Shown here in pieces: positions 54,533 through 57,715 of a stretch of DNA of 64,000 nt (positions are counted from its first letter, which is position 1; each line of letters opens with the position of its first letter). The notes under the pieces were generated by a model that worked only from the letters and a program-made list of their open reading frames with translations, was not told the origin of the DNA and ran no database searches. The position numbers and the translations under genes are program-made. The DNA is from Octopus sinensis (taxonomy: Eukaryota): positions 2,790,001-2,854,000 of the forward strand of contig NC_043021.1 of assembly GCF_006345805.1 (NCBI RefSeq). Direction: 5' to 3'.

Positions 54533-54632
54533 NNNNNNNNNNNNNNNNNNNNNNNNNNNNNNNNNNNNNNNNNNNNNNNNNNNNNNNNNNNNNNNNNNNN
54601 NNNNNNNNNNNNNNNNNNNNNNNNNNNNNNNN
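54533..54632. other. Assembly gap (100 N)
   Basis: Run of exactly 100 N, typical of a placeholder gap of unknown size. Confidence 0.99.
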
Positions 54633-56016
54633 TTGTGGGAAGAAGTTTGCTCCCCAACCATATGGTTCTGAGTTCAGTTCCACTGCGTGGCACTTTGAAC
54701 TATGTGAAAATATCTGCCATACAAGAAATGTCAGGCTTGATATTTCTTAGTTCATCAGGAAGAACAGAACTAGAGTCTTGCAAGAATTCAACAAATGTTC
54801 CAAAAGGAGAACAGAAACATTTCACACAAGTTTCCCTTTGACAGTCCTTGAATTTCTGTGTGCAACAGCAATTATTCAAAATCTTCATTGTTTTCTGTGT
54901 GTAGAGCAGTCGAGGATTGAGAGCATGTGCCTTGATTTTATTCAAAGCTGTGATAACAGCACTTCACAATTTTTTAAGTCTACCACCTGGGTTGTGAATT
55001 ATGCAGGTGCAGGAGTGGCTGTGTGGTAAGTAGCTTGCTAACCAACCACATGGTTCTGGGTTCAGTCCCACTGTGTGGCATCTTGGGCAAGTGTCTTCTG
55101 CTATAGCCCCGGGCCGACCAATGCCTTGTGAGTGGATTTGGTAGACGGAAACTGAAAGAAGCCTGTCGTGTATATGTATATATATATATATATATATAAG
55201 TGTGTGTGTATATGTTTTGTGTGTCTGTGTTTGTCCCCCTATCATTGCTTGACAAACCGATTGCTGGTGTGTTTACGTTCCCGTCACTTAGCAGTTCGGC
55301 AAAAGAAAGACCGATAGAAGTACTGGGCTTACAAAGAATAAGTCCTGGGGTCGATTTGCTCGACTAAAGGCGGTGCTCCAGCATGGCCGCAGTCAAATGA
55401 CTGAAACAAGTAAAAGAGTAAAAGAGAAAAATACCAGGTACAACTTTTTTCATTAAACTAATGAAGCCATGATGACAACCTACCATCAATGATCCCCATC
55501 TGTTGCACATGCTAGAATATCGGAAAGCGGGATGTCTTTCTCTCTGAAAAACACATCAACATGAAATATTGATTCCCCTTTTGTGTCTGTTTTTAGTTCA
55601 TTTGCAAATGGTAACCCCTGAACCAAACGCTAATCTTTGACAAAAGGAACACAGGCAAGAAGTAAACTTCTATTGCCTTGTAGAGGTGATTCATCTAACT
55701 CTAAGCTAAATCCAGTTCTTCTAAGAATGTTGCACAACATGTCTTCAATGTTTGCAGCCATTTCATCCACTTTTCTTTCAACAGAATTATCACTTAAAAG
55801 AATAGCTTTAATGATTTCTTCAGGTGATTCACGTACAATTGTGTGCAAAACCTCTCTTATTGCTGGCAGAATAAACTTCTCTCCTGTTGTAAGAGGCTTG
55901 CCAGTTCTAGCAATCTGTAATGAGGTGCTGTATGATGCACACAAACCACTACCAGCTTGTGAAATGCTAGCAAACATATTTCCAATGCTTTTTCAGTCAG
56001 AAAGTTTTCTTGAAGT

Positions 56017-56059
56017 TGTAAGAGGATGAGAGATTCCTGCACTGGATGGGTGCAGCTCG

Positions 56060-56095
<36 letters not shown>

Positions 56096-56518
56096 TAACG
56101 TCCGTTCTCCATGCTAGCATGGGTTGGACGGTTCGACCGGGGATCTGGGAAGCCAGAAGGCTGCCCCAGGCTCCGGTCTTATCTGGCAATGTTTCTACAG
56201 CTGGATGCCCTTCCTAATGCCAATCACTCCGTGAGTGTAGTGGGTGCTTTTTACGTGCCACCTGCACTGGTGCCAGGCGAGGCTGGCATCGGCCACGGTC
56301 GGATTGGTGCATTTTACGTGCCACCTGCACGGAAGCCAGTCGAGGCGGCACTGGCTTCGGCCACGATTCGGATAGTGCTTTTTACGTATCTCCAGTCCAG
56401 GGGTCCTGGCATCTGCCAGGTGCCAGTCATAGGATTGGTTCAATTTCGATTCCGATTCCGATTTCGATTTACATTAAATCCTTTACATTAAATATTAATT
56501 CAAGATGGCGTCACTACA
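56017..56518 (-). mobile_element. Short (~85 bp) solo LTR with 4-bp TSD, split by a family-D retroposon
   Basis: AAGT|TGTAAGAGG...GCATC [retroposon ~56062-56478] CTTTACATT...CACTACA|AAGT; TG...CA termini; nearly identical to 56851-56935. Confidence 0.75.
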
Positions 56519-56783
56519 AAGTGACTGGGAATATGTCAACTTTTTCTCTGCTTTTTCAGAGGGTATTTTTCTCAAATGTTCAAAAAGCCTGGAAGGTTTC
56601 ATGGCCCAGAGGAAGGAAATGTTTATATTGCGAATCAAGAAATAAATATTTATACTGTTGAATTTAATCGGAAGTCTTGACTCTTTCTTCGATTAATATT
56701 AATGTAAAGGATGCGAGCTGCACCCATCCAGTGCGGGGACCTCTCACCCTGTTACAATTGGTGACCCCTACGTGATTCAAACA

Positions 56784-56848
56784 CGCAACGGTAGCGCATC
56801 TGACTCAAGATCAGAAGGCTGTGTGTTCGAATCACGTTGGGGTCACCA
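56784..56848 (+). pseudogene. Retrocopied tRNA-Trp body (about nt 11 to the 3' CCA), anticodon reads CAA
   Basis: CGCAACGGTAGCGCATCTGACTCAAGATCAGAAGGCTGTGTGTTCGAATCACGTTGGGGTCACCA matches eukaryotic tRNA-Trp; encoded CCA; 5' acceptor strand missing. Confidence 0.8.
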
Positions 56849-56850
56849 AT

Positions 56851-56935
56851 TGTAACAGGATCAGAGATTCCTGCACTGGATGGGTGCAGCTCGCATCCTT
56901 TACATTAAATATTAATCGAAGATGGTGTCACTACA
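56851..56935 (-). mobile_element. Short LTR followed (minus strand) by AT and a tRNA-Trp PBS
   Basis: Minus strand: ACTT|TGTAGTGAC...CCTGTTACA-AT-TGGTGACCCCAACGTGAT. Confidence 0.75.
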
Positions 56936-57715
56936 AAGTTACTGGGAATATGTCAACTTTTTCTCTGCTTTTTCAGAGGGTATTTTTCTCAAATTTCCAA
57001 AAACCTGGAAGGTTTCATGGCTTTGTTTGAAAAAAACTTTCTCACCCAGTTGGAACATTGGTTGCCTCTTGTTATTTGGTATGGCACAAAACCATACTTA
57101 AGATATTCCACACTTCATTGCCTACACTTCATTCTAGCTTGTTTTGCTGTAGCCATATTTTATTCTGAAAAAAAAAAAGAAAAAAAAGAAAGAAAATCTT
57201 TGTAAAAAGCTGTTGTAGTGTTAAGTGAAAGTTGGATACTTTTAATACGTTTATTATTGTATTGAGTGAGCCTGACTTTCGATTCAGAAGTCGAAAGAAT
57301 AATTCAATATGATTGGCCATCATCTGCAAAGTATAATCTTTGTGAGCTTACTTTTGCTTTATTCAATAAACAAAGACTGTACAAGTAGGATAAAAAAAAA
57401 AACAAAAAAAAAAAAAACGGAAAAATGGATTATGAAGAATTTTGAGGTAGTGTAATTTCCATAATTACATTGAAAAAGAGCCGAGGAAAACCAACTACAT
57501 ACATACCAAGTGAACTCCATTGAAATTTTCTTATTTTCTTCCAGACTATTCAGCTCACTGCATTGTGCCTCATGGGAAGCTAATGTCTACAAAACATTCT
57601 CATGCATTTGGTAATAATGTGGTTGATGTCTTGATTTAGTTTTGCACAGTCTACATGTATTGTCTATCAATGTTTTTTCTGCCTCTTACACGGCAGACCA
57701 GTGGCATAGATTTAA

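Follow-up and report, generated by a model that had tools for sequence, protein, structure and literature searches.

Two LTR ends of what is probably a Gypsy-type family are joined head to head, in a single junction, around a copy of mature tRNA-Trp in the window (the whole 64,000-nucleotide stretch of Octopus sinensis DNA analysed here). The junction most probably derives from an over-extended plus-strand strong-stop cDNA, which probably formed a fold-back and then, again probably, was taken up at a chromosome break next to a local solo LTR. We saw no function for the resulting hairpin locus, which appears to belong to a set of about 40 by-products left by one kind of slip.

Architecture of the hairpin locus

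On the plus strand, a motif search of the window located AATAAA at 56641 and TGTTACA at 56750-56756, followed by AT and, directly after this spacer, by TGGTGACCCC at 56759. Further along, GGGGTCACCA occupies 56839-56848 and is followed by AT and then by TGTAACA from 56851. The first-pass annotation, made from the letters alone, had described the 3' part of an LTR with AATAAA, ending in TGTTACA at 56756, then AT and a tRNA-Trp primer-binding site (PBS), and these motifs lie where it had placed them. The two arms of the hairpin (56678-56787 and 56820-56930) align over 111 columns with 11 mismatches and one gap; because the outermost columns are chance extension, the true arm length is about 102-105 bp, in line with the ~105 bp first proposed. 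The features of the locus are the following:

56013..56016, unstranded: target-site copy AAGT, left of the first mini solo LTR; the 4-mer is repeated at 56519-56522 and 56936-56939
56017..56518, minus strand: first copy of an internally deleted solo LTR (mini-LTR), between two AAGT copies, with another repeat inserted later
56064..56480 (ends approximate), unstranded: abundant interspersed repeat with a (CAT)n end, within the first mini-LTR; many other matches in the window; missing from the second copy
56519..56605, plus strand: unique flank F, copy 1; two genome matches, both at the locus
56604..56756, plus strand: 3' 153 bp of an undeleted LTR, GACC variant, with the AATAAA and the TGTTACA end; fold-back arm
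56759..56789, plus strand: antisense tRNA-Trp from position 76 to ~47, 31 nt, after AT; a putative fold-back copy
56784..56789, unstranded: CGCAAC switch point, where tRNA positions 11-16 pair with the complement of 46-51; unique in the genome and bridged in runs X1 and X4
56784..56848, plus strand: tRNA-Trp positions 11-76 including CCA; a 65-nt copy, antisense on the minus strand
56851..56935, minus strand: second copy of the deleted solo LTR, AATC variant, 85 bp, joined by AT to the tRNA CCA
56936..57021, plus strand: unique flank F, copy 2, 86 bp, with AAGT at its start

The undeleted LTR piece overlaps flank F by 2 bp (GC). The mini-LTR is composed of ~17 bp of the LTR 5' end fused to ~68 bp of the 3' end, and this deletion junction has two exact matches in the genome, both at the locus, and two one-mismatch matches, neither of which is an LTR. 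The two copies of the mini-LTR plus F unit (56017-56605 and 56851-57021) differ at 9 of 172 columns. At four diagnostic sites the right arm and the first mini-LTR have the same letters and the left arm differs from both, being of the GACC variant also found in other LTR copies. Since the right arm is of the local mini-LTR type and the left arm of another variant, the arms appear to come from different templates, one chromosomal and local, the other foreign. The inverted second LTR end of the first reading is thus present, but as an 85-bp internally deleted LTR duplicated together with 86 bp of flank from 56017-56605.

Followed along the minus strand, the order is flank, mini-LTR, AT, antisense tRNA from 76 to 11, sense tRNA from 48 to 76, AT, 153 bp of antisense LTR, flank again and mini-LTR. 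The locus is better read in this direction, with the 65-nt tRNA copy as the over-extended product and the 31-nt 'long PBS' as its fold-back copy; the ~31 nt of complementarity originally taken for a PBS is correct in length, but the genuine PBS of the family has 10-12 nt. An open reading frame in the flank (55633-55977) gave no Pfam match. By their motifs, the flanks at 55630-56016 and 56936-57021 resemble pieces of what we take to be one decayed hAT/Buster transposase. A 100-N assembly gap lies at 54533-54632, ~2 kb left of the hairpin locus.

The hairpin locus is real. The first-pass annotation had made its reading depend on read support for the junction, and the loop junction is bridged in two of four runs, X1 and X4, which come from two studies: by a 133-nt contig with no differences in X1 and by a 109-nt contig with two differences in X4. 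The assembly might derive from either of these runs, but not with both letter patterns. In addition, contig 8 of run X2 spans 56878-57160, covering part of the second mini-LTR and the flank, while in run X5 a contig matches flank F (56501-56605) but no contig crosses the loop, which may represent an allele without the event. An assembly artefact, in the form of a palindrome or merged haplotypes, could draw on the left junction at 56605, where flank copy 1 is joined to the LTR and no contig gives cover in seven runs, although such gaps are non-probative. It is very improbable given the bridging of the loop in two studies, once with two differences, the 5-10% divergence of the arms and duplicated units with CpG-type decay, and the later insertion in only one of the copies.

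The tRNA-Trp copy and its template

Rfam matches a tRNA at 56774-56845 with 42.8 bits (cut-off 29); ARAGORN called no tRNA in the window. A further Rfam match, to MIR9746 (36 bits, cut-off 79), was rejected as a hairpin look-alike. The sense copy corresponds to tRNA-Trp 11-76 with four changes (G26A, C35A, C50T and C66T); its anticodon is now CAA, and positions 58 and 37 are unchanged. The change at 26 could reflect CpG decay or an A26 gene variant (L052). The sense tRNA-Trp running into CCA-AT-TGTAACA of the first-pass annotation holds as a sequence and as an Rfam tRNA, but it covers positions 11-76 only and has lost its Trp anticodon.

As to the template isodecoder, C47 is found in 25 of the 29 gene-like copies seen and T47 in 4 of 29. 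The antisense of a C47 tRNA reads CGCAGC, so that the CGCAAC microhomology, correctly placed at 56784-56789 from the outset, amounts to only five of six letters plus a G-T wobble, unless a T47 isodecoder was the template. ARAGORN finds 28 tRNA-Trp genes in 32 loci of the 2.72-Gb genome, and those seen are without CCA, as had been assumed for eukaryotic tRNA genes. About 18 tRNA-Trp genes are clustered at G000:C6:69.58-70.14 Mb, including C47, T47 and other isodecoders. The tRNA complement in the window is 65 nt long, CCA included, compared with a PBS of 10-12 nt in the donor family; this short PBS, together with genes that do not encode CCA, indicates that the 65 nt were copied from mature tRNA.

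The donor LTR family

The donor LTR is ~430 bp long (TGTAGTG..TGTTACA) and has 4-bp target-site duplications (TSDs), present in three of the four solo LTRs with both ends seen (the copies with such TSDs are L013, L029, L030, L010 and L136). Solo LTRs of the family end at TGTTACA, and the tRNA match falls outside the LTR end. A full copy of 6.4 kb (L136) has paired TG..CA LTRs that are 95% identical, the TSD GTCA, a Trp PBS of 10 nt and a pol in pieces with the Pfam order RVT_1, RT_RNaseH, Integrase_H2C2 and rve, which is the same in L141. The Trp PBS also measures 10-12 nt in L112, L114, L120, L122 and L123, and among 15 LTR+PBS matches those with shared internal sequence downstream have 10-12 nt of tRNA complement. 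The 85-bp unit, for which the first-pass annotation had considered that links to gag/pol, PBS or TSDs might be lacking everywhere, thus belongs to an LTR tied to pol, a PBS and 4-bp TSDs. On the basis of domain order, TSD length and family traits that we take to be characteristic, the donor is probably a Gypsy-type LTR family. A small non-coding element, L010 (G000:C2:86018074), consists of two LTRs of the window family around 378 bp with a PBS and a purine-rich tract, with the TSD TAGG.

Sibling chimeras in the genome

A genome search with tRNA-Trp 48-76 plus CCA, a pattern that leaves shorter products outside the count, yielded 42 matches (two with a mismatch within CCA) and none in the control. 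Setting aside the two matches of the window and four loci with common downstream sequence, 36 were counted; L004, L157 and L159, found by other routes, stand outside the 36. Many different LTR families adjoin the 42 matches, and the sequence beyond the tRNA is unrelated between loci, except for the pair in the window and the four loci with a common internal region. None of the 42 copies reaches position 10, so the A box is kept in none.

The 5' ends of the tRNA in the 36 loci fall at position 38 (nine), 39-41 (nine), 43-49 (seven), 35-36 (five), 26-29 (five) and 19 (one), with none at 30-34. Nine ends at 38 arose in 0 and 1 of 5000 simulations under two null models (P<=0.0002), and nine ends at any one position had simulated probabilities of 0.002 and 0.0008 (P<=0.0022). 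A copy ending at 38 or at 27 falls a single base short of G37 or G26, respectively. A58 is altered in 10 of the 36 (seven T, three G) compared with 2 of 132 control letters (Fisher 3e-6), and the five exact non-A58 matches in the genome are all chimeras, with no gene among them. In the 19 loci with TGT directly after CCA, 11 ends lie at 38-41 (P 0.006). Changes at A58 occur in 8 of the 17 loci without this TGT, compared with 2 of the 19 that have it; the former include L085, an LTR with a long spacer, and L132, with unique DNA downstream of CCA. Because the A58 changes are mostly in non-TGT loci and L132 stands before unique DNA, more than one reverse transcriptase may be involved, and the non-TGT tRNA-Trp 3' parts may have been made by another enzyme. 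A short T-rich run follows CCA in the non-TGT loci L132, L080, L104, L108, L126, L133 and others.

Methylation at G37, G26 and G9 is expected from general eukaryote patterns. By analogy, octopus tRNA-Trp presumably carries modifications at 9, 26, 37 and 58, and the sibling ends and A58 changes fit stops before a predicted m1G37 and misreading of a predicted m1A58; the stops near 38-41 could alternatively stem from the anticodon stem or from tRNA cleavage. Positions 9, 26, 37 and 58 are described among the conserved modified tRNA sites profiled by reverse transcription signatures (PMC8062790), m1G37 is described as widespread, and yeast tRNA-Trp as 2'-O-methylated at 32/34 (PMC10275265). In the window, the copy extends to 11; a stop at G9 would have left it one base longer. 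Among individual read-through copies, L004 (G000:C27:3915846) has lost one base at 26 and has G at 58, and L092 has C at 37 and ends at 27; L128 has C at 26.

The siblings also differ in how they entered the chromosome. Most consist of LTR, tRNA complement and unique flank, with no TSD seen. Over-extended siblings that start at the U3 edge of a whole LTR are L083, L086, L090, L091, L093, L100 and L109; the arm in the window is a local deleted LTR. In L086, L093 and L124 the sequence passes from the tRNA complement straight to the terminal few bases of the LTR tip, so that a second end is rebuilt, with the TSDs CACT, ACCT and CAGT, respectively. Two others fold back into their own LTR and have two U3 tips: L083 (G000:C4:46650218), with tRNA complement to position 40 and the TSD GTTG, and L006 (G000:C10:14248447), with 18 nt of tRNA complement and the TSD AATG. 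The TSDs suggest that such siblings were inserted by integrase. Head-to-head junctions of another LTR family are bridged by tRNA copies of 39, 33 and 18 nt in L159, L082 and L157, respectively, and L081 and L084 are inverted. The family of these head-to-head junctions has LTRs of ~849 bp and a Trp PBS (L154-L165 and L082; at least 40 matches to the query L085:1530-1830); the 3' end of its LTR lacks TG..CA symmetry and is separated from the PBS by ~7 nt. Finally, L099, L106, L107, L131, L134 and L135 show an LTR, 29-37 nt of tRNA complement, a short LTR end and a PBS; four of them have a common internal region and three have different LTR ends before the tRNA. They are possibly chimeric elements from a mis-jump, or inherited.

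Proposed mechanism and rival readings

For the window locus, we propose that the reverse transcriptase would have read past A58, G37 and G26 and stopped at C11, adjoining G9/G10. The 3' end GTTGCG could then have paired with CGCA(G/A)C within the same tRNA copy and primed synthesis back across the PBS and into the LTR for 153 bp or more, giving a hairpin. Repair synthesis starting at the end of F may next have used the 2-bp overlap to enter this hairpin and, after copying it, switched back to chromosomal sequence inside the terminal ~16 bases of the local deleted solo LTR, leaving LTR and F duplicated, a scheme that would explain insert and duplication with two junctions. Forcing the fold-back raises the energy above that of the best fold by 0.4 kcal/mol for the T47 copy and by 3.1 for the C47 copy; in unconstrained folding the fold-back was not the lowest-energy structure (z about -0.4 to -1.0, pairing probability 0.07-0.20).

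Two molecules would leave the identical sequence in the window locus, and a route of that kind is the main rival. Minus-strand strong-stop DNA with its tRNA would have jumped to a transcript that reads through the local mini-LTR and its flank, been copied back into the tRNA, switched to a second over-extended cDNA of another LTR variant and then been inserted. Such a route accords with the plus strand of 56784-57021, which is exactly tRNA-CCA-AT-LTR complement-flank, with a right arm of the local variant until ~16 bp from the LTR end, and with barcoded yeast inversions, described as not single-barcode in 84% (10.1101/2024.03.07.583931). It requires, however, two over-extended products plus a transcript of the locus, whereas one hairpin gives the same sequence with two junctions and fold-back siblings are known; we regard it as unlikely.

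Two further readings were weighed. The first-pass annotation had seen in the junction either the fossil of a reverse transcription gone wrong, with a switch of template, or an LTR family in which the entire primer tRNA is carried along, and had proposed a genome-wide comparison to separate a family trait from a one-off. Taken as a copy, long or whole, that is inherited after the 5' LTR, the second option can draw on four loci with other LTRs (L099, L107, L131 and L135): in these, ~31 nt of tRNA complement lead into one common LTR end, PBS and internal region, so that short extensions of this kind may be inherited. For the donor family an inherited copy is refuted by its PBS, only 10 nt in L136 and 10-12 nt in the five other PBS-internal copies, and by a CGCAAC junction and a mini-LTR found only at the window locus; other loci are unrelated beyond the tRNA, and as an account of the locus this reading is extremely improbable. 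Since the junction occurs once in the genome, the hairpin is a one-off and not a family trait, and the fossil interpretation is supported. The first-pass annotation had overlooked both the tandem duplication at the locus and the ~40 siblings. A tRNA-Trp SINE or a LINE-made tRNA retropseudogene with an LTR-like body and 5' truncations would match the variable 5' ends, which resemble LINE-type truncation, and the 17 of 36 loci without TGT after CCA, at least one of which has unique DNA there. The body, however, belongs to an LTR whose own TG..CA ends are flanked by TSDs and whose family has a pol gene, the A box is in 0 of 42 copies, and many LTR families adjoin the tRNA; this origin is refuted for the copy in the window and very unlikely overall, though it may apply to part of the non-TGT class.

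Significance and comparison with known systems

The locus itself is inert, and its value lies in the fossil set to which it belongs. In inherited DNA, this set shows at which points of its primer an LTR reverse transcriptase halts once the m1A58 stop has failed, a matter previously known mainly from HIV biochemistry, and it is relevant to the way in which elements whose PBS measures 10-12 nt deal with plus strands that extend to 18 nt or further. It also shows that cDNAs of this dead-end kind can recover both LTR tips as well as a 4-bp TSD, and it offers a route to infer tRNA modifications from genome sequence alone. With the balance even, animal genomes may constitute a readable fossil record of germline tRNA methylation, in which Gypsy reverse transcriptases over-run their primers and stop or misread at m1A58, m1G37, G26 and G9, the products being rescued by fold-back or by a jump to the LTR tip that rebuilds two integrase-ready ends. 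This would amount to a distinct and overlooked insertion pathway, minable for every primer tRNA, and a source of the tRNA-U5 fusions proposed as SINE precursors. In a literature search largely restricted to papers outside subscription and to main texts, no report of genomic LTR-primer-tRNA read-through fossils was found.

In HIV, plus-strand strong-stop DNA is described as stopping at m1A58, with minor products at 55, 54 and 37, and unmodified tRNA as being copied fully (PMC13191261). Over-extended retroviral products of this type resemble the octopus loci in joining an LTR to a mature primer-tRNA complement with CCA, and the siblings end just 3' of 58 and 37; the retroviral molecules are presented as dead-end products in vitro and in cells, whereas those of the octopus are fixed in the germline, derive from several Gypsy-type families, and include fold-backs, regenerated LTR ends and TSDs (PMC13191261). 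In yeast, Ty1 cDNA intermediates are described as entering double-strand breaks (PMC11372161) and single-stranded DNA as folding back before insertion (10.1101/2024.03.07.583931). These break inserts are alike in that LTR-end cDNA is inserted without integrase and inverted inserts arise via microhomology; extra cDNA-only nucleotides are mentioned, but no long tRNA copy is given in the available text of either source (PMC11372161, 10.1101/2024.03.07.583931). The octopus locus, in contrast to the yeast Ty1 inserts, is natural, old and paired with a local solo-LTR duplication.

The Helenus, Ajax and Cassandra TRIMs likewise place tRNA-derived sequence beside an LTR, with a 4-bp TSD and a Gypsy partner, but their tRNA part is described as lying inside both LTRs and not as a primer, whereas the octopus locus has a primer complement outside the LTR, once (PMC10886601). 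Consistent with this difference, the tRNA match in the window lies outside the LTR end rather than in both LTRs. Tailless retropseudogenes are also partial tRNA copies in DNA; they are described as 3'-truncated and LINE-made, whereas the octopus copies retain CCA, are missing the 5' end and adjoin LTR ends (PMC5322556). In place of a 3' truncation between TSDs, the copy in the window has an intact CCA 3' end and a missing 5' end.

Ohshima et al. reportedly proposed in 1993 a strong-stop model for the birth of tRNA SINEs. The octopus chimeras share with that model a tRNA-CCA fused to the LTR U5 complement. They differ in that the copies have no A box and none has multiplied; of the features of a tRNA-derived SINE (a head with A and B boxes, a multiplied unit with a tail, and a TSD), the head is incomplete, as no copy reaches position 10, and the junction is single. 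The octopus copies would thus be stillborn versions of the proposed intermediate, and the A box missing from every one of them suggests why such fusions rarely become SINEs.
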